A stretch of DNA of 64,000 nucleotides from Candidatus Thorarchaeota archaeon (GCA_046758445.1 JBHIAE010000010.1:1-64000); one strand, 5' to 3'. Counted from the stretch's first letter, positions 3,009-10,984 are shown. A program made the numbers and translations. Notes: generated by a model not told the origin, from the letters alone.

Positions 3009-4358
3009 TTAACCCGAGCTGACCTTCGCTGATGATATCACTATGGACGGGCTTATGATTGAGAGAGAAACTCTCGTGTCTTCACCAACCATCTCAACAC
3101 GCTGAAGAAGATCCCGCATGTTTATGCCCACAAGGGTGCTCTTGACCGGATGCTGAATCTCCCCATTCTCGAAATATGCGCCCTCCATCACCATCGCACT
3201 AAGGTCACCAGTCGTCATGTTTGGACGATCTCCTGTGTTACGGCACAGAATCCCTTTGCCAACTTCTGACACCAAATCATCAAGTGAGCCTTTCCCAGGA
3301 GTCACCACAAGATTGGACGTTGAGATTGATGGTACACCAGAATACGATGGTCGGCTAGCGTTTCCAGTGTTGTCGACGTCGTCTTTGTTGGCGGTGTATG
3401 AATTATGGAGGAGGCTCTTCAGAACACGGTTCTCAATTACCTCGGTCTTCTGTGAAGGGAAGCCTTCGGCATCGAATGACCGTGAGCCAACACCCCCAGG
3501 CAGCAACCCATCGTCAACAAGGTGGAGCGACACCGACGCGATCTCTTCTCCGAATGCATCCGAGATATATGACCGCCCATATTGTACCTCTTCGGCGTTG
3601 ACTGCTCCTGCGAAGCCCCCTCCAAGAACCGTACCTGACGCAAGAGGAGCCAGTATGACTGGCATGTCGCCGCCCTCAACGGTCTTGGCTCCAAGATTGT
3701 TCACTGCATTCTCCGCAGAGGTGCGACCAATCCAATCGGGATCAATGTCCTTGAGTGTGCGGGAAACCTGTAGCTCGTAGCTTGATGTCTGGTCCGTTTC
3801 AGTCTTGATGGTCGGAGACATGTACATCCAAGAGGATGTGGATTCGGCCGAACATGAGATTCCCAGCGAATTGACAATGACCCTCGCGCCGGTCGAGACA
3901 CCAAGTTTCCCCTCGATTGCGAACTTGTATCCTTCAAGTGCATGACTCGTAGCATCGACTCCCCTCGCAATGAGATCTGCTGCATCCTCAGAGTCCAGTG
4001 CTTGAATTCTCGGGTCGAAAAGGCCTTTCACATCTGGGTAACTCGCTCTAACTGATGGTAGGCTGATGAAGTGGGGATCCTCTACGGAAGCTTTTGCCAG
4101 CTTCACAGATTTCTCTGCGGCTTCTATCAGGTCACTCTCCTGGACCGTCGTGACGTAGGCAAATCCAACCTTCTTGCCCACCACTGAGCGAATTCCGCAA
4201 CCTGCATCGCGTTTGTCGGACGCACTCTTGATAGCATTGTTCTCGACATCGATGGAGAATGATCGTGTTGAACCTATGTACACCTCTGCCTGATCTGCTC
4301 CAAAGCCTTCAGCCTTTTGAGCCGCCTTGTGCGCAATGTCAAGAAGACGGTCTTTCAT
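3009..4358 (-). CDS. pmbA: TldE/PmbA family protein
   Basis: FDAEG and TGNASR motifs, no HExxxH; start trimmed to MKDRLL, 2 nt after the tldD stop. Confidence 0.92.
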   Translation of the reverse strand: MKDRLLDIAHKAAQKAEGFGADQAEVYIGSTRSFSIDVENNAIKSASDKRDAGCGIRSVVGKKVGFAYVTTVQESDLIEAAEKSVKLAKASVEDPHFISLPSVRASYPDVKGLFDPRIQALDSEDAADLIARGVDATSHALEGYKFAIEGKLGVSTGARVIVNSLGISCSAESTSSWMYMSPTIKTETDQTSSYELQVSRTLKDIDPDWIGRTSAENAVNNLGAKTVEGGDMPVILAPLASGTVLGGGFAGAVNAEEVQYGRSYISDAFGEEIASVSLHLVDDGLLPGGVGSRSFDAEGFPSQKTEVIENRVLKSLLHNSYTANKDDVDNTGNASRPSYSGVPSISTSNLVVTPGKGSLDDLVSEVGKGILCRNTGDRPNMTTGDLSAMVMEGAYFENGEIQHPVKSTLVGINMRDLLQRVEMVGEDTRVSLSIISPSIVISSAKVSSG

Positions 4359-4359
4359 T

Positions 4360-5754
4360 TCACATTCCCCCCACCGGAATGCTTCTGATACGAGCATGTG
4401 GCCCTCCAGACATGTCCGGGACCATCTGTCCGTTCTTTCCGCATGTGCCAGCATCCATCTTGAAGTCCTTACCAACAGCATCGATCTTGGGAAGCACCTC
4501 AAGTATCTGTCCCGCAAGAGAAACATCTCTCACCATCTGTCCAATCTCACCCTTCTCAATGATGTAGCCATGACTGGCCTGAAACATGAATTGGCCTTTC
4601 GATGGTTCGGTGTAACCATAGTTGAAACTGCACAGCAGGATTCCCTCTCCGGTATCAGCAATCAGTTCATCAACATCCCAGTCGCCGGGCTCCATCAGAG
4701 TATTGGACATTCTGGGCAAAGGTGAGTGCATGAAGGACTGTGCTCTTCCGGCCCCGTTTGGCTGCATCCTCAACCGGACAGAAGTCTCTAGTGTGTGAAG
4801 AAGTTCTGTCAGTATTCCATCCTTGACCAAATGTCTCTTACTCGTTTTGGTACCTTCCCAGTCGTAGTCGAAGCTGCCACGCTCGCCAGGCATTGTTGGG
4901 TCGTCACTGAGGTTCAGGTGCTCAGGACCCACGCGCTTCCCGACCTTATCCTCGAGGACTGTCGTGTGTGCAGGCCAATTGTCTGCCTCACATGCATGTC
5001 CAAAGGCCTCATGTACCATCACACCATTCAGCACCGGGTCCATGACAACGTCATAGTTCCCACCCTTCGCTGCAACAGAAGATAGCAAGTCAATTGCCAT
5101 CGTTGCAGACTCCTCGCCAATGTTCTGCGGCCTTTCTCTTTCAAGCTCTTCGAAGCCGCCCTTGACCCCATGCGACTTGAAAGCACGTTGTCTGCTTGTG
5201 CCGTCCCTGGCAGTTGACATGGAGATGATTCGTGGTAGCGTGTTCGTGGTCCGGACGTCTGTACCCAGAGAGTTGGCAATGTAGAGCTCAGTCCAAAGGT
5301 CACCATACACTGTTCGCGTGTTTATGATTCGATTGTCGAAAGACCTAGCTTGGTCATCAATCATCTTGACGTAGATCATCTTGTCCTCAAATGTCACGTC
5401 GTCAAATGGTTTTGGCACCCGGTAATCAATGCGGTCCTTGAACGTAGGACCGTCTATGTCGAACTGCTCCGCCACTCTGGACTTTGTTGCAAGAGCCAGT
5501 TTGGCTACAGACCTTCCGGTTTCTCGCATTCCTTCATTGGTCAAATCAGTGGTTTGACCAAAAGCCCAGGCCCCATCGATGAAGGCTCGTATTCCAGCGC
5601 CCCTGAGACGAGAGGCCAAGAACCTCTTGGTAACACCGTCGGTCATCTCGATAATCGTAGTGACCGTGTTCTCGATCCGCACATCCGCGAAGGATGCGCC
5701 TTCATTCAGAGCTGCTTCGATTGCGGCTTGTGCAAGATTCTCCATTGGCATCAC
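4360..5754 (-). CDS. tldD: TldD family metalloprotease
   Basis: HEAFGHACEAD zinc motif, PRMSNT, C-terminal CGKNGQ..P. Confidence 0.95.
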   Translation of the reverse strand: MMPMENLAQAAIEAALNEGASFADVRIENTVTTIIEMTDGVTKRFLASRLRGAGIRAFIDGAWAFGQTTDLTNEGMRETGRSVAKLALATKSRVAEQFDIDGPTFKDRIDYRVPKPFDDVTFEDKMIYVKMIDDQARSFDNRIINTRTVYGDLWTELYIANSLGTDVRTTNTLPRIISMSTARDGTSRQRAFKSHGVKGGFEELERERPQNIGEESATMAIDLLSSVAAKGGNYDVVMDPVLNGVMVHEAFGHACEADNWPAHTTVLEDKVGKRVGPEHLNLSDDPTMPGERGSFDYDWEGTKTSKRHLVKDGILTELLHTLETSVRLRMQPNGAGRAQSFMHSPLPRMSNTLMEPGDWDVDELIADTGEGILLCSFNYGYTEPSKGQFMFQASHGYIIEKGEIGQMVRDVSLAGQILEVLPKIDAVGKDFKMDAGTCGKNGQMVPDMSGGPHARIRSIPVGGM

Positions 5755-5929
5755 GGTGATGTCAGTGATGCCGACTGAAACCGTGTGAATCCATTATAAC
5801 TGATGTGGACTGGCAGCTTTCTGTAGTACTGAGTGTGTCCTCATACTCAGAGGACCTACTAATACGAGCGTGATACACGGGTTATTCTTAGCTTGCATTG
5901 GTACAGTACAGGACATAGGAGCTATACAC

Positions 5930-7486
5930 TTGACCCTAGATTCTTCGTCCAAACGTTGTCCCTCATGTCAGCGTAACAATGCCAGTCACATGTGTGAGGA
6001 CTGTGGCACTGTGCTATGCTCTGAGTGCTTGGAACCTAGATCAAGTGAATACCAAGTATGCAAAGACTGTCACAACTCAGTATCCAGTTCGTACGAAGAG
6101 GACAAGATAGAAGTCTGTCCTGAGTGTGAGTCTGAGAACATAAGCACCGGTCGACGCACCGAGGACATGTGCCCCCGATGCCACTCAGGCCGCATCGTCC
6201 TTCTTGAAGAGAAACGAAGAAGCCTTGCGCAGGACCTTCGCCATGCAATAATGAACATTCAATATGGCCATACTAGACTTCGCGAGTTCGCGAATCGATT
6301 GGACTCAGCTAAGAGGATACTTGTTTCGTTGAGGATGGCGAACTTCCTACATTATCATTGGCTTGAGGACAAGATTGAAACAATCCAAGAGGAGCTTCCT
6401 GCAATCAAGAACAGGGTTGGTAACCAAGCTGAGATAGTATCCCGAAGAATGGCAGCGGAAACAAGCGGACTAATAGACTACAATCGGTGGACTCCAGGAC
6501 AATTTCCATTCATCGAAGGGGTCACAAACAGGGTTTCAGAGATTAGCAACCACTACAAGCAGAACGTAGACGATGCTCTGGATGAAGTGAAGCCCTTACT
6601 GAATGACGTGAGTACGCAGCTTGATGGACTGAGCTATCACCGGACCGAGTTCAAAGAGTTCTATGAACATGGCGAGTTATCCGTGAATGAACTGCCTGTC
6701 TGTGCTCTGCCAGATATCAAGATGGTGGGGAGCAACTTCCTGAAGAATGACAAGGCCGAGGGGACCATGTATATCACCAACAAGAGGTTGATCTTCGTCG
6801 CTGAAACTGGCAGGCTTCGTAAGAAGACAGAGATTGTGTTTGACTTCCCACTCGTCTACCTGAAGGAGATAGAAGAGGACGGTCGCCTGAGGAAGAAGCT
6901 TGTCCTAAAGATGAAACAAGGAAACCTGCGGATTAGCTGCAATGAAGAAACGAAGAAGGTCCTTCCCGACTACATTGAGATTGCCAGACGATTTGAGAGG
7001 TACATGCAGACTGACCTTCAAAGAGTAAGGAAGATTGAGCAGAAGTCAGTGAGCATCAGCGATGTCCGACTCAAAATCGAAGGTTTGGTCTACTCCCTCC
7101 TTTCAGGTGGAAACATAGAGCTTCAAGACGGGTTGCCTACAAGACGGTGGCTGGACACTAGGGCAAAACCCACCCCAATGAGGATGCGCGATAATGCGTC
7201 AAGATATGACTACTATGACAGCTCAAAGAGGTTCAGAGACCACTTGGAAGACACCATAGGTCGGGCTGACTATGGTACAAGAGGCCAGGACACACAATTG
7301 GAAACACTGCGACGAAACGCAATGGAAATCGATGGGGCAATTGACGAAACAATTCGATTGATGCGTAGCGGCCATTTGGTCACTGAGGACTTCATCAGAA
7401 GGTATCGTGGACTCATGCGTGACTCATACTACACGAGAAGAGAGATTGAACGTGTTGCCAGGGAAATGGGCAGATACAGATGGTAG
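5930..7486 (+). CDS. Multi-domain ESCRT-I-like protein: Cys-rich Zn fingers, helical region, PH/GRAM-like domain, C-terminal steadiness-box (Vps23-core)-like hairpin
   Basis: CPSC..CEDC..CSEC, CKDC..CPEC, CPRC; EGTMYITNKRLIF (GRAM/PH-like); AIDETIRLMRSGHLVTEDFIRRYRGLMRDSYYTR resembles the Vps23/TSG101 steadiness box; TTG start at 5930 after AGGAG; adjacent to ESCRT-III. Confidence 0.7.
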   Translation: MTLDSSSKRCPSCQRNNASHMCEDCGTVLCSECLEPRSSEYQVCKDCHNSVSSSYEEDKIEVCPECESENISTGRRTEDMCPRCHSGRIVLLEEKRRSLAQDLRHAIMNIQYGHTRLREFANRLDSAKRILVSLRMANFLHYHWLEDKIETIQEELPAIKNRVGNQAEIVSRRMAAETSGLIDYNRWTPGQFPFIEGVTNRVSEISNHYKQNVDDALDEVKPLLNDVSTQLDGLSYHRTEFKEFYEHGELSVNELPVCALPDIKMVGSNFLKNDKAEGTMYITNKRLIFVAETGRLRKKTEIVFDFPLVYLKEIEEDGRLRKKLVLKMKQGNLRISCNEETKKVLPDYIEIARRFERYMQTDLQRVRKIEQKSVSISDVRLKIEGLVYSLLSGGNIELQDGLPTRRWLDTRAKPTPMRMRDNASRYDYYDSSKRFRDHLEDTIGRADYGTRGQDTQLETLRRNAMEIDGAIDETIRLMRSGHLVTEDFIRRYRGLMRDSYYTRREIERVAREMGRYRW

Positions 7487-8095
7487 TTAGATTCCAAGTT
7501 CGCGCTCCAGCTCTTTGATGTCTTCTTCTAGAGACTCGGTTTCTGAAACAGGCTTAGCCACAGCAGAGGCGTCCAAAAGGCCTGCTTCTACATCAAGTTC
7601 CTGCATTGCACTTGATAGATCTTCAGAACTCACATCCATGGTCATGTCAAGTGCTTCACCGGAAATGCTGGCCTCAATCTCGAAATCATCAAGTCTTCGT
7701 GCGATTTCATCGACGTTCTCAACTAGCTTCTTCGCATCTGAAGTATTCCCGAGCATTCCGAGTATCTTACCGACTTCTTCTAGCGCGCGGCTCGTCTTCG
7801 CAGACGTCTGTGCTCGATTCAAATGAGCAAGTATCTTCAGTATTTGAAGACGCGACTTGTCTACGGAAAGAGCGAACCTACGAAAGCGAACCATCTCCGT
7901 CGCATAGGTTCGGAATGCCTCAACTTGCCCGGTCTTCCTGGCTTTGACAGCCCTGGCCTTTGTGTCCCGTTCCTCTTTCTCTAACTTGTTTCTCTGTCGC
8001 TCCAGCTGTTTGGCCAGGATTCTTAGCTGACTGGATACCTCGCCAGCATCAGGCCTCTTGCGACCCCATGAGAACGCCTTCCTTAGTGAATCCAA
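7487..8095 (-). CDS. ESCRT-III subunit, Vps2/24/46 (CHMP1-3) type, Snf7 family
   Basis: Basic N-terminal helical hairpin (KARKTGQVEAFRTYATEMVRFRR, CHMP2-like), acidic C-terminus ending in a MIM-like helix LEEDIKELERELGI; divergent from vps4. Confidence 0.9.
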   Translation of the reverse strand: MDSLRKAFSWGRKRPDAGEVSSQLRILAKQLERQRNKLEKEERDTKARAVKARKTGQVEAFRTYATEMVRFRRFALSVDKSRLQILKILAHLNRAQTSAKTSRALEEVGKILGMLGNTSDAKKLVENVDEIARRLDDFEIEASISGEALDMTMDVSSEDLSSAMQELDVEAGLLDASAVAKPVSETESLEEDIKELERELGI

Positions 8096-8269: not shown

Positions 8270-9487
8270 ATGTCTGATAGGTTAGACCTGGGCTTGAAGA
8301 AACTTCTCGACAAGGCCATAGAACTGGACCAAAGGGGAATGAAGAAGGAAGCATCGCAGTACTATCTCAAGGCAAGCAAGGTCTTGATCAAGCTGTCTAA
8401 CGCATCATCTCTTCCTTCTGTCAAGAAGCACTATGTGGATAGGGCTCAGGAATGTGTGGACAGGGTCAGATACATCTCCGGTATCAAGAAGAAAGCCAGG
8501 GGGCCTCCCGACGGTCTAACGACTCCGCTCTCACCAAGTCCTGTCAGAGATGCAGAGGCCATCAGCGAAACGGAACCAGAAGCCGAAGTGGAAATGGATG
8601 AGGACACTCGAAGACTGCAGGAGATGATCGCGGACACGATTATCTCAGAGAAACCCAGCACAAAGATGTCAGAGGTGGCTGGCCTCGAAGCAGCAAAGCA
8701 GGCCATCAACGATGCGATTGTCGCACCAATGAAACATCCCGAGCTATTCATGGCGAAGGCTAGACAACCATGGAGGGGAATTCTCTTCTATGGTCCAGCA
8801 GGCTGCGGAAAGACACTGATCGCGAAAGCAGTGGCTGCAGAGGTCAATGCCACATTCTTCAATGTTTCAGCAGGAAACATAGTCAGCAAGTGGCTGGGAG
8901 AGTCGGAGAGACTTGTCATGACCCTATTTCAACTGGCCAGAAAGAGCCAGCCAGCGATAATATTCATGGATGAGCTTGACTCAATTGGGGTTTCCAGATC
9001 CGGCGACGACGTTGGCGGAGAGAGACGTCTAAAGACCCAACTATTGACAGAACTTCAGGGACTAGCTAGTGAGGCTCAGGATAGAATAACTGTGATTGGC
9101 GCGACCAACTTGCCGTGGGAGCTGGATTTCGCACTCAGATCTCGGTTTGAGAAGAAGATTCACGTTCCACTTCCTGACAAGACTGCACGAAAGAACATCT
9201 TTCAGATTCACATGGAGGACATTGAGGTTTCATCGGAGATTGACTACGATGAGCTTGCGGACCTCAGTGAAGGATACAGCGGCCGAGACATTAGCGTTGT
9301 GTGCAGAGAGGCAGCAATGGAGCCGATTAGAGACCTCCAACACTCAGGTCGAATGGATGAGGAAGAAGAGATTCTAGATATTCGTCCTGTTTCCAGAGAG
9401 GACTTTCTCCAAGCGATTGAGAACATAAGACCGGCCACTTCTCCTGAGGATGTCAAGAGATACATCGACTGGGCGGAGGGTTCGTAG
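8270..9487 (+). CDS. vps4: Vps4 AAA+ ATPase with N-terminal MIT domain
   Basis: MIT helix (AIELDQRGMKKEASQYY), PWRGILFYGPAGCGKT, SKWLGESERLV, IIFMDELD, GATNLPWELD, EGYSGRDI. Confidence 0.96.
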   Translation: MSDRLDLGLKKLLDKAIELDQRGMKKEASQYYLKASKVLIKLSNASSLPSVKKHYVDRAQECVDRVRYISGIKKKARGPPDGLTTPLSPSPVRDAEAISETEPEAEVEMDEDTRRLQEMIADTIISEKPSTKMSEVAGLEAAKQAINDAIVAPMKHPELFMAKARQPWRGILFYGPAGCGKTLIAKAVAAEVNATFFNVSAGNIVSKWLGESERLVMTLFQLARKSQPAIIFMDELDSIGVSRSGDDVGGERRLKTQLLTELQGLASEAQDRITVIGATNLPWELDFALRSRFEKKIHVPLPDKTARKNIFQIHMEDIEVSSEIDYDELADLSEGYSGRDISVVCREAAMEPIRDLQHSGRMDEEEEILDIRPVSREDFLQAIENIRPATSPEDVKRYIDWAEGS

Positions 9488-9490
9488 GTT

Positions 9491-10222
9491 TTGGGAGTCA
9501 AGGAAAGGCGCAAAGAGAAGGAGAAGGCAGAAGCTGCGTCAAAGACTGCAGAAGAAGAAGTCGAACCTGTCAAGGAGATTCGACCTCAGAGCATTGAAGA
9601 AACCCACAGACCTGTTGTTGAGATCGTAGAAGAGGCATCGGAGATTGTTCCGGAGGCTACCAATGAGGGGGTTGTCGAAGCAGTTGCAGATGACGTCACA
9701 ACCTCACCTGTGGAAACCATTCTCCTCCCTTCGTGGGGCAATCAGAACGAAACTGAATGGATGTACAGCATACCCCCTAGGGAGGAAGACAAGAAGATGT
9801 GGGCGGAGGAGTGGGCAGACTTCGTTCTAGGGTGGGCTGAAGCAAGTGGAATTCACGTGCTCTCCGTCACTACATTCATCAAGGAGCCTCCTTTCAGCGA
9901 TATCTCTGGGAAGGTAGATTCATTCCAACTGATTGGTGAAGTGCTGGTCGAGAAGAAGATTGCAGAGTGGCTTGACGAGGCGAGAAGACAGCTCCGAGTC
10001 TATTGGAGATTCCTCGAGGAATGGGCTGACATCATGTATCAATGGGCAATGAAGTCCGGAAAGCTAAGACTCGATGTGAAATCCATTGTAATCCAAGAAG
10101 AGGAACAGGGTTTCGCGAATCTGCCCGAAAAGGACATCCACATAATCATGAGAATCATGGTTGAGAAGGGAATGGCGACCTGGGTCGACAAGACGAAGGG
10201 TGCCATAAAGGTCAAGGTCTAG
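9491..10222 (+). CDS. vps25: ESCRT-II Vps25-like protein with acidic disordered N-terminus
   Basis: VYWRFLEEWADIMYQWAMKSG matches the Vps25 W..PEEW..IYQW motif; tandem winged-helix size; begins 3 nt after vps4. Confidence 0.85.
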   Translation: MGVKERRKEKEKAEAASKTAEEEVEPVKEIRPQSIEETHRPVVEIVEEASEIVPEATNEGVVEAVADDVTTSPVETILLPSWGNQNETEWMYSIPPREEDKKMWAEEWADFVLGWAEASGIHVLSVTTFIKEPPFSDISGKVDSFQLIGEVLVEKKIAEWLDEARRQLRVYWRFLEEWADIMYQWAMKSGKLRLDVKSIVIQEEEQGFANLPEKDIHIIMRIMVEKGMATWVDKTKGAIKVKV

Positions 10223-10225
10223 AGC

Positions 10226-10984
10226 TTAACGGGCAGACCCAAAGGATTGGTCACTCTTATCCCTGGCCCTAAGGCCGGGAAAGTAATAGCGGCCTCCAGT
10301 GGAGAAACGAATGTCAGCCACGGCCATTCCAGCATCGACGAGGCTCGCGAGGACTTGACGTGCATGGTCTTCTGACCATTTGAACTGCATCATTACCTCC
10401 TCAACCGATACATGACCTTTTGAAGCTGCTAGGTTGACAACGTCAGCCTGGTCTCTTCTTAGCTCTAAGGGGCGAAGCTCAACTACTTTCACACCGCCTC
10501 TAAGAGTACGAATCCCAGGGATAAGGCCATGTTCCGCCACTCGATTCACAGCCTCAATCACATCACTGTAACTCACGGCCTTGAGCTCAGGGAGACGTTT
10601 GACAACCTCAACGATCAGCTCTGCCAGCCCCATGAGACCTTTCGAAGCGTTTGCAGTGGCAACGTCAAGTATGGCGAGCCCAATGTAGTCATAGTACTCC
10701 TCTTGGGACATTCCGTCTGCTCTTGGATGAGTTTCAGACCTTTGAAGATTCAGCAGCTGAATAGCATCAGCAAATCGTTCTGTTAGCCTCTCCATCTCCA
10801 TGAAAGAACTGATGTCAAGCCCAATCCGACTGAAGTCATCGATATTGTGTTTGACCTCTCTTGTAAGTGCTTCAGACTCTCTTTGATATGACCTGATATC
10901 GACCACTCCCAAATCGAACATCTTCTTCAGTTGGTCCAGCGTGGCTATGGACGCGTAGAGTTCTGACTGAAGTCGCTCCTGCAT
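10226..10984 (-). CDS. Fusion of a Vps28 N-terminal-like hairpin (ESCRT-I) and a Vps22/Vps36 EAP30 domain (ESCRT-II)
   Basis: N-term ELYASIATLDQLKKMFDLGVVDIRSY resembles Vps28 ELF(A/S)..TM..LEKAY; C-term YYDYIGLAILDV...GLMGLAEL...PLEL..DQ..V...KWS...RQVL...YYFPGL resembles Vps22/SNF8. Confidence 0.85.
   Translation of the reverse strand: MQERLQSELYASIATLDQLKKMFDLGVVDIRSYQRESEALTREVKHNIDDFSRIGLDISSFMEMERLTERFADAIQLLNLQRSETHPRADGMSQEEYYDYIGLAILDVATANASKGLMGLAELIVEVVKRLPELKAVSYSDVIEAVNRVAEHGLIPGIRTLRGGVKVVELRPLELRRDQADVVNLAASKGHVSVEEVMMQFKWSEDHARQVLASLVDAGMAVADIRFSTGGRYYFPGLRARDKSDQSFGSAR

Follow-up and report, generated by a model that had tools for sequence, protein, structure and literature searches.

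A Thorarchaeota member of the Asgard Znr_CC_PH_SB family, a likely ESCRT-I component, encoded within an ESCRT locus

Introduction

[quoted passage not shown] Among them is the Znr_CC_PH_SB family (asCOG cog.011556), described by Makarova et al. (2024, mBio; PMC10936438) as 'a likely ESCRT-I component' with a PH domain that 'is expected to be membrane associated', and listed in a 2023 preprint as a steadiness/Vps23-box group. Widespread among Asgard archaea, the family does not occur in eukaryotes, and no experimental study of it was found in the literature examined. Here we describe a member encoded on a 64,000-nucleotide stretch of DNA (hereafter the window) from a Candidatus Thorarchaeota archaeon (GCA_046758445.1, JBHIAE010000010.1:1-64000). 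Thorarchaeota are reported to lack both ubiquitin and a UEV-containing Vps23 (PMC9192718), in agreement with our own genome searches, and in their absence this family supplies the group's sole ESCRT candidate that is upstream and faces the membrane; the ligand of its PH domain and the partner of its steadiness box, once known, would reveal how ESCRT is targeted without ubiquitin. The computational description of the family being already published, what we add is a confirmation and a sharper docking hypothesis, not a discovery.

Membership of the Znr_CC_PH_SB family

The protein is a Thorarchaeota member of this Asgard-specific family; its architecture was already known, and our analysis confirms known biology. 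Zinc modules, a helical region, a PH domain and a steadiness box are all present, in the order of the family name in Table S2 of PMC10936438. The family profile reaches the NCBI-named Lokiarchaeota P0137 (E 7.9e-46) and Jordarchaeia P0134 proteins, which have the same architecture, and it matches 118 representatives (50% identity level) and, at E<=1e-8, 241 of the 301 Asgard genomes that were sampled, although the weakest of these genome matches (E ~1e-9 to 1e-11) may be to a single domain only. Within the window's own family the profile matches 73 of 76 genomes, and within the Loki-type family f9 it matches 64 of 68. The tie to the published member is strong but indirect: a 672-amino acid open reading frame (ORF) of the Loki-type genome G156, which matches our protein by BLASTP at 9e-32, is followed by the gene for MetE, the cobalamin-independent methionine synthase, and the published example of cog.011556, As_004-p_01543 of Lokiarchaeum GC14_75, is likewise followed by MetE (PMC10936438). 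Nothing essential sets the Thorarchaeota protein apart from the described family, with which it shares the domains and their order, the three zinc modules, the phylum and the ESCRT association; it differs in a linker of about 60 residues, compared with up to about 400 in Loki-type members, and in a gene position directly inside an ESCRT-III/Vps4/ESCRT-II locus.

Close homologues number 167, nearly all of them labelled Thorarchaeota, and the gene is single-copy, no second copy having been found in its genome (92.7% complete). Residues are numbered here from the TTG at 5930; the same ORF is open further upstream, with an alternative GTG start at 5870, but TTG is a plausible start codon, since homologues start at the equivalent position and GGAG is present 8 nt upstream of it. 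A whole-protein AlphaFold2 model, built with a 25-sequence alignment, has a mean predicted local distance difference test (pLDDT) score of 77.8. Every feature that the original prediction had listed (CxxC pairs, a helical segment, the strand motif GTMYITNKRLIF, a linker and a C-terminal hairpin string) is present in the translation, and it named the domains correctly: a zinc module and helices, then a PH/GRAM-like domain and, last, a steadiness box of Vps23 type. It over-reached in taking the UEV domain to have been replaced and in its bearing on the origin of the GLUE domain.

The C-terminal steadiness box

The C-terminal hairpin comprises helices 454-479 and 485-517 in the AlphaFold2 model and carries the D..I..MRSG.L..EDF.R.YR.L.R..Y string DETIRLMRSGHLVTEDFIRRYRGLMRDSY at residues 471-499. 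Both the fold search and the profile of the family lead to Vps23, and the homology of the hairpin to the Vps23 steadiness box is convincing, but this sequence does not reach the Pfam threshold. Compared with the PDB, the whole-family profile matches yeast Vps23 (2p22_A, E 1.3e-6; 2f66_A, 6.4e-6; 2caz_A, 1.4e-5), TSG101 (6vme_B, E 0.0019) and VPS37B (E 0.084), and a profile of Thorarchaeota C-termini alone has yeast Vps23 chains as its first three matches (E 0.02-0.07). A separate AlphaFold2 model of the last 100 residues, in which the hairpin has pLDDT 95-98, was searched with Foldseek against 350,542 PDB chains. ESCRT-I headpiece chains account for nine of the ten top matches; the first is the Vps23 C-terminus from the Vps23-C:Vps28-N complex (2f6m_C; root-mean-square deviation (rmsd) 0.6 Å, TMt 0.88, 23% identity), and Vps23/ESCRT-I headpiece chains superpose at 0.6-0.8 Å. 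Pure geometry does not separate helical hairpins: in a VIA-align comparison with 48,161 chains, 247 reached Z>=8, CdvA, CHMP4B, Vps37B, Vps23 and designed hairpins among them.

A Vps23_core-like C terminus had been predicted from the sequence and is what these searches find, while the Pfam Vps23_core model (PF09454; cut-off 26.8 bits), proposed as a check, gave a divided answer. The target protein has no match to it at E<=0.1, and the target ORF is missing from the results of a PF09454 search of the whole genome; five of 25 Thorarchaeota members match at E<=1, the best at 0.0019. A PF09454 survey of the 301 Asgard genomes returned ORFs of about 500-700 amino acids with matching C-termini. The five that were retrieved are homologous to the target over its full length (residues 5-512, BLASTP 1e-32 to 1e-50), and at the C-terminus they reach 27.5, 26.8, 26.5, 21.1 and 19 bits, so that the best orthologues reach the threshold that the target itself falls below. 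An hhalign comparison of the Thorarchaeota C-termini with 11 steadiness boxes of Asgard UEV-Vps23 proteins aligned the two in register, yet with a probability of 1.8% and E 0.027.

Two further ORFs with sub-threshold Vps23_core matches, in genomes G029 (L125, G029:C18, 580 amino acids) and G048 (L126, G048:C213, 609 amino acids), are not homologues of the family and are other steadiness-box architectures. A 490-amino acid ORF of G145 (L113:1687-3156, + strand) was also rejected as a member; it is a UEV-Vps23-Vps28 fusion, with UQ_con/UEV, Vps23_core (28.6 bits) and complete VPS28 (42.3 bits) domains, of a type already reported for Heimdallarchaeota.

Gene context and proposed mechanism

The features of the gene and of the ESCRT genes beyond it are collected in Table 1. 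Upstream of the target are ArgRS and two TldD/PmbA genes, and AspRS lies downstream of the locus. A convergent Snf7 gene stands next to the target orthologue in 69 of 69 Thorarchaeota loci, and Vps4, Vps25 and Vps22 follow in 55 of 56, the lone exception having a scaffold gap; the search for related loci returned Thorarchaeota only, because the peptide patterns that it used were Thorarchaeota-specific. The linkage of the family to ESCRT is supported, on stronger evidence than the Thorarchaeota synteny, by a cluster in genome G118, of a different Asgard family, which runs UEV-Vps23, Vps28, a 98-amino acid ORF, Vps22, Vps25, Vps4 and two Snf7 genes, with the orthologue last and convergent with Snf7 as in Thorarchaeota. 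In G156 the orthologue has a Snf7 gene some 1.2 kb away. Searches for UEV, UQ_con, Vps23_core and ubiquitin gave no match in the window's genome, 92.7% complete as it is, and any match to Vps23_core occurs in only one of the 76 genomes of the Thorarchaeota family.

Table 1. Coordinates in the window of the target gene, its domains and the adjoining ESCRT genes
Feature	Position	Strand	Basis
Whole gene, Znr_CC_PH_SB family protein, 518 aa	5930..7486	+	ORF list and translation
B-box-1-like module, first four CxxC pairs (C10-C47)	5957..6070	+	8 invariant Cys
Zinc ribbon, fifth and sixth CxxC pairs (C63/C66, C81/C84)	6116..6181	+	Invariant Cys
Helical region, aa 92-246, four helices	6203..6667	+	AlphaFold2, pLDDT 80-95
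PH-fold domain (PH-GRAM/GLUE/bPH-like), aa 247-360	6668..7009	+	VIA-align, Foldseek
Short helices, then disordered polar linker, aa 361-453	7010..7288	+	AlphaFold2, alignment
Helical hairpin of Vps23-core type (steadiness box), aa 454-517	7289..7480	+	Profiles, AlphaFold2, Foldseek
ESCRT-III (Snf7 family) gene, convergent with target, stop codons abut	7487..8095	-	Pfam Snf7, E 6.9e-10
Vps4 (MIT + AAA + Vps4_C)	8270..9487	+	Pfam
Vps25-like ESCRT-II subunit	9491..10222	+	Pfam ESCRT-II, E 1.8e-14
Vps22 (EAP30), N-terminal Vps28-N-like steadiness-box hairpin	10226..10984	-	Pfam EAP30, aa 70-224

In eukaryotic ESCRT-I the C-terminal part of Vps23 packs directly on the N-terminal part of Vps28. We think it probable that the Thorarchaeota protein is an ESCRT-I-like adaptor of the Znr_CC_PH_SB family that works in a comparable manner. 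Its PH domain, possibly aided by the zinc module, would place the protein on a membrane or on cargo, and its C-terminal hairpin would pack on another steadiness-box hairpin, as Vps23-C does on Vps28-N. For this genome we infer that the likeliest partner would be the hairpin, similar to Vps28-N, that the neighbouring Vps22 carries as a fusion, a contact that would bring in ESCRT-II (Vps22/Vps25), which in turn would nucleate ESCRT-III (Snf7), with Vps4 recycling ESCRT-III. The PH/zinc head would in this way be tied directly to ESCRT-II, and then to ESCRT-III and Vps4, with ubiquitin playing no part; recruitment would be ubiquitin-independent, since searches of this genome found neither a UEV domain nor ubiquitin. 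The choice of partner is suggested by the resemblance of the Vps22 N-terminus to Vps28-N and by the origin of the best structural match of the target hairpin in the Vps23-C:Vps28-N complex 2f6m. The N-terminus of Vps22 has a weak Pfam VPS28 match at residues 7-79, and the N-terminal half of the bona fide Vps28 of G118 matches it with E 6.6e-6 and 31% identity. The fusion of a steadiness box to Vps22 has already been published, and the same source gives the same general reading of the family, as a likely part of ESCRT-I that carries a PH domain for membrane binding (PMC10936438).

Several points weigh against this mechanism. Taken by itself the target sequence has sub-threshold Pfam matches only and reaches no Pfam cut-off, and the pairing of its steadiness box with that of Vps22 would follow by analogy only. 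The PH domain may plausibly bind lipid, but conserved basic positions are few (only K298, K322 and K323), and PH-GRAM domains bind proteins too. The housekeeping genes ArgRS, TldD and AspRS are as fixed in the Thorarchaeota synteny as the ESCRT genes are, so that this synteny is weak evidence alone, reflecting in part relatedness and not selection for linkage, and Loki-type genomes carry the gene outside the main ESCRT cluster.

The same analogy can be carried a step further, though we regard the result as rather unlikely. If the target hairpin docks on the Vps22 hairpin, the two adjacent genes might together, and independently of ubiquitin, stand in for both ESCRT-I and the Vps36 arm that belongs to ESCRT-II, with the PH domain, zinc fingers and winged helices of that arm held together non-covalently, possibly as a state that preceded the fusion giving the GLUE-bearing Vps36 of eukaryotes.

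A different way of reading the gene context is that the protein is a CdvA-like recruiter, seated on the membrane and binding the adjacent Snf7 directly without ESCRT-II. Its gene abuts Snf7 in every one of the Thorarchaeota loci and in G118 and is near one in G156, the hairpin superposes on the CdvA filament of S. islandicus (Z 10.7), published work links the steadiness box to CdvA, and published yeast two-hybrid data hint at contacts of Thorarchaeota ESCRT-I/II with ESCRT-III that bypass Vps25. We nevertheless consider this unlikely: the Z scores of the hairpin are non-discriminating, as described above, sequence profiles choose Vps23 and not CdvA, and neither an E3B-type peptide nor a winged-helix partner was identified.

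Some further observations concern these loci and the genome at large. The TldD/PmbA pair lies upstream of the ESCRT locus in 66 of 66 Thorarchaeota loci; in the window these metallopeptidase-family ORFs (3009-4526 and 4360-5754, both - strand) overlap by 167 nt as listed, and the true start of the 3009-4526 gene is probably further in. The 98-amino acid ORF between Vps28 and Vps22 in the complete ESCRT cluster of G118 (L116:4944-5240, + strand) has no Pfam match and may encode a steadiness box standing on its own or a ubiquitin-like protein. In the Thorarchaeota genome just one other ORF, of 414 amino acids (L079:835-2079, - strand; G000:C13), gives a VPS28-like signal; it matches the VPS28 model of Pfam weakly, in the C-terminal part (18.1 bits, E 0.002), and may be a protein containing the Vps28 C-terminal domain that is encoded away from the ESCRT locus.

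The PH-fold domain

The central domain has a PH fold, as had been predicted, modelled by AlphaFold2 as seven strands (256-336) and a capping helix (339-358), with GTMYITNKRLIF at residues 278-289; within that fold the modelled structure fits the GRAM-like subgroup best and does not single out GLUE. Among the candidates compared by VIA-align, the best match is the PH-GRAM domain of MTMR2 (Z 12.8, 2.8 Å over 107 residues), followed by Lam6 (Z 12.0) and BBS5 (Z 11.6); the GLUE domain of EAP45 superposes with Z 11.4 (2hth_B, 3.6 Å over 107 residues) and 10.4 (2dx5_A) at 18-22% identity, ordinary PH domains reach Z of about 10-11, and many PH domains lie at Z 10-12.8 over about 100-110 residues. 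Foldseek with the whole model likewise matched MTMR2 PH-GRAM (rmsd 3.5 Å, about 20% identity), the PH-like domain of Lam6 and EAP45 GLUE (2dx5_A, E 9e-4, TMt 0.65). The myotubularin and Lam (GRAMD) domains, the best structural matches at 14-21% identity, share the G.L..TN.RL.F strand motif with the target, which differs from those proteins in lacking a phosphatase or StART-like domain, in a Pfam GRAM score below threshold and in its gene context.

Pfam scores for the domain are 19.8 bits for GRAM (PF02893, cut-off 23.6) and 14.6 bits for Vps36_ESCRT-II (PF11605, cut-off 24.1) in the target, or 22.2 and 17.9 bits in the genome search, in which this region is the best match genome-wide for both the GRAM and the GLUE models; bPH_3 is also sub-threshold in the target. 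Among the Thorarchaeota members bPH_3 matches 18 of 25, GRAM 9 of 25 (E<=1) and the Vps36 model 6 of 25. A profile of the PH domain only, made from 20 Thorarchaeota and non-Thorarchaeota sequences, gave nothing significant against the PDB, its best matches being a bacterial PH domain (E 0.22), BBS5 (E 1) and Vps36 (E 1.1), and a GLUE-specific relationship is therefore not supported. What had been called GLUE-like stands as a fold that superposes on GLUE, and a specific link to Vps36 is not supported, the structural scores being tied with those of MTMR2, Lam6 and BBS5.

These comparisons bear on the proposal that the protein serves as the Vps36-like arm that ESCRT-II otherwise lacks, and that the GLUE domain of eukaryotes descends directly from its PH domain. 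Both proteins combine a GRAM-like PH fold with zinc fingers, so that the target recalls yeast Vps36; of the 60 PDB matches listed for the whole-family profile, one alone is a PH chain, Vps36 GLUE (E 0.052), and the neighbouring Vps22, in agreement with the original prediction, has no PH or GLUE domain by Pfam. We hold the proposal to be quite unlikely, however, since GLUE is not the best structural match and lies within about 1.5 Z of the other three domains, the PH-only profile ranks Vps36 behind a bacterial PH domain, and bPH_3 matches three times as many members as the Vps36 model does. In addition, the zinc modules of the target are N-terminal and of the B-box/ribbon type, whereas yeast Vps36 has NZF fingers inserted in its PH domain, and the target has neither winged-helix domains nor an EAP30 domain, its sequence link to Vps36 not being significant.

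As to a ligand, we infer that the PH domain may bind lipid. In the non-Thorarchaeota Asgard genome G240 a gene for myo-inositol-1-phosphate synthase (L118, 2262-3353, + strand; Pfam Inos-1-P_synth, E 1.2e-32) lies directly upstream of the orthologue (L118:3799-5421; G240:C122) on the same strand, a single case that could be a hint of inositol-lipid binding by the domain or could be chance.

Relationship to Vps23

The protein had originally been presented as a Vps23 in which the UEV domain is replaced, that is, as the Thorarchaeota orthologue of Vps23 with zinc fingers and a PH domain in place of UEV. Thorarchaeota have no UEV-Vps23, and among solved chains the steadiness box is closest to that of Vps23/TSG101, with which the target has the C-terminal hairpin in common; the target differs in lacking both a UEV domain and any recognition module of PTAP type, its N-terminal 360 residues being zinc fingers, helical region and PH domain. 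Orthology is nonetheless improbable and the framing was wrong, since the G118 cluster holds a family member beside a canonical UEV-Vps23 (Vps23_core, 31.2 bits) and Vps28, and other genomes of the same family as G118 hold a family member and UEV-Vps23 on the same contigs. From this coexistence the family must be a separate steadiness-box paralogue and not a remodelled Vps23, and from its occurrence in most Asgard families it must be older than any loss of UEV-Vps23 specific to Thorarchaeota.

Zinc modules, helical region and linker

The zinc region (residues 1-91 in the AlphaFold2 model) contains exactly six CxxC pairs, C10/C13, C22/C25, C30/C33, C44/C47, C63/C66 and C81/C84, and all 12 cysteines are invariant in an alignment of 34 family members. 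With identities to the target of only about 20-25%, such invariance means that the zinc sites are real and under selection and are not due to chance. Three sites are formed from these cysteines. The first four pairs, spaced C-x2-C-x8-C-x2-C-x4-C-x2-C-x10-C-x2-C, form the B-box-1-like module, which is predicted probably to bind two zinc ions in a cross-brace. Pfam zf-B_box (PF00643) scores 21.3 bits in the target (cut-off 24.1), has precomputed matches in three homologues and matches 17 of 25 members (best E 1.9e-5), with ANCHR-like_BBOX matching 8 of 25; in the PDB the family profile finds the RING of RNF4 (E 1.2e-5) and also TRIM and COP1 fingers. The remaining two pairs belong to the zinc ribbon, in the model of which residues 71-80 form a beta hairpin and 89-91 a strand; Pfam DZR is sub-threshold in the target (22 bits) and matches 19 of 25 members. 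That the protein is a B-box/RING-type regulator or ligase and its ESCRT neighbourhood incidental is very improbable, for although some members carry the NCBI name 'B-box zinc finger protein' and the RNF4 RING is matched, searches of this genome found neither ubiquitin nor E2/UEV, distant lineages likewise show the steadiness box and linkage to ESCRT, and the ligands are all cysteine, with a spacing that suits a B-box more than a RING.

Between the PH domain and the steadiness box, residues 395-452 are modelled as disordered, with pLDDT below 50 at 395-431 and 444-452. The length of this linker ranges from about 60 to about 400 residues across the alignment, with large insertions in Loki-type members, and the Thorarchaeota linker is thus the short version of the family.

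The helical region, named 'coiled coil' in the literature on the family (PMC10936438), is modelled as helices at 92-136, 143-178, 189-218 and 221-246. With the whole model the top Foldseek matches are DH-PH RhoGEFs (Vav1, Dbs), but a DH-like helical region was rejected because the rmsd is 17-22 Å and the TM score 0.2-0.3, the PH part alone fitting. The region carries an invariant R135 and near-invariant H141 and E146, and its conservation, which exceeds the needs of a plain coiled coil, suggests a putative binding site. R135 is the sole invariant residue of the family outside the zinc and PH modules; together with H141 and E146 it lies in a turn motif, LVSLRMANFLHY.WLE (window 6320-6370, residues 131-146). 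A W.P.QFPFIEG loop (window 6488-6523, residues 187-198) is conserved among Thorarchaeota.

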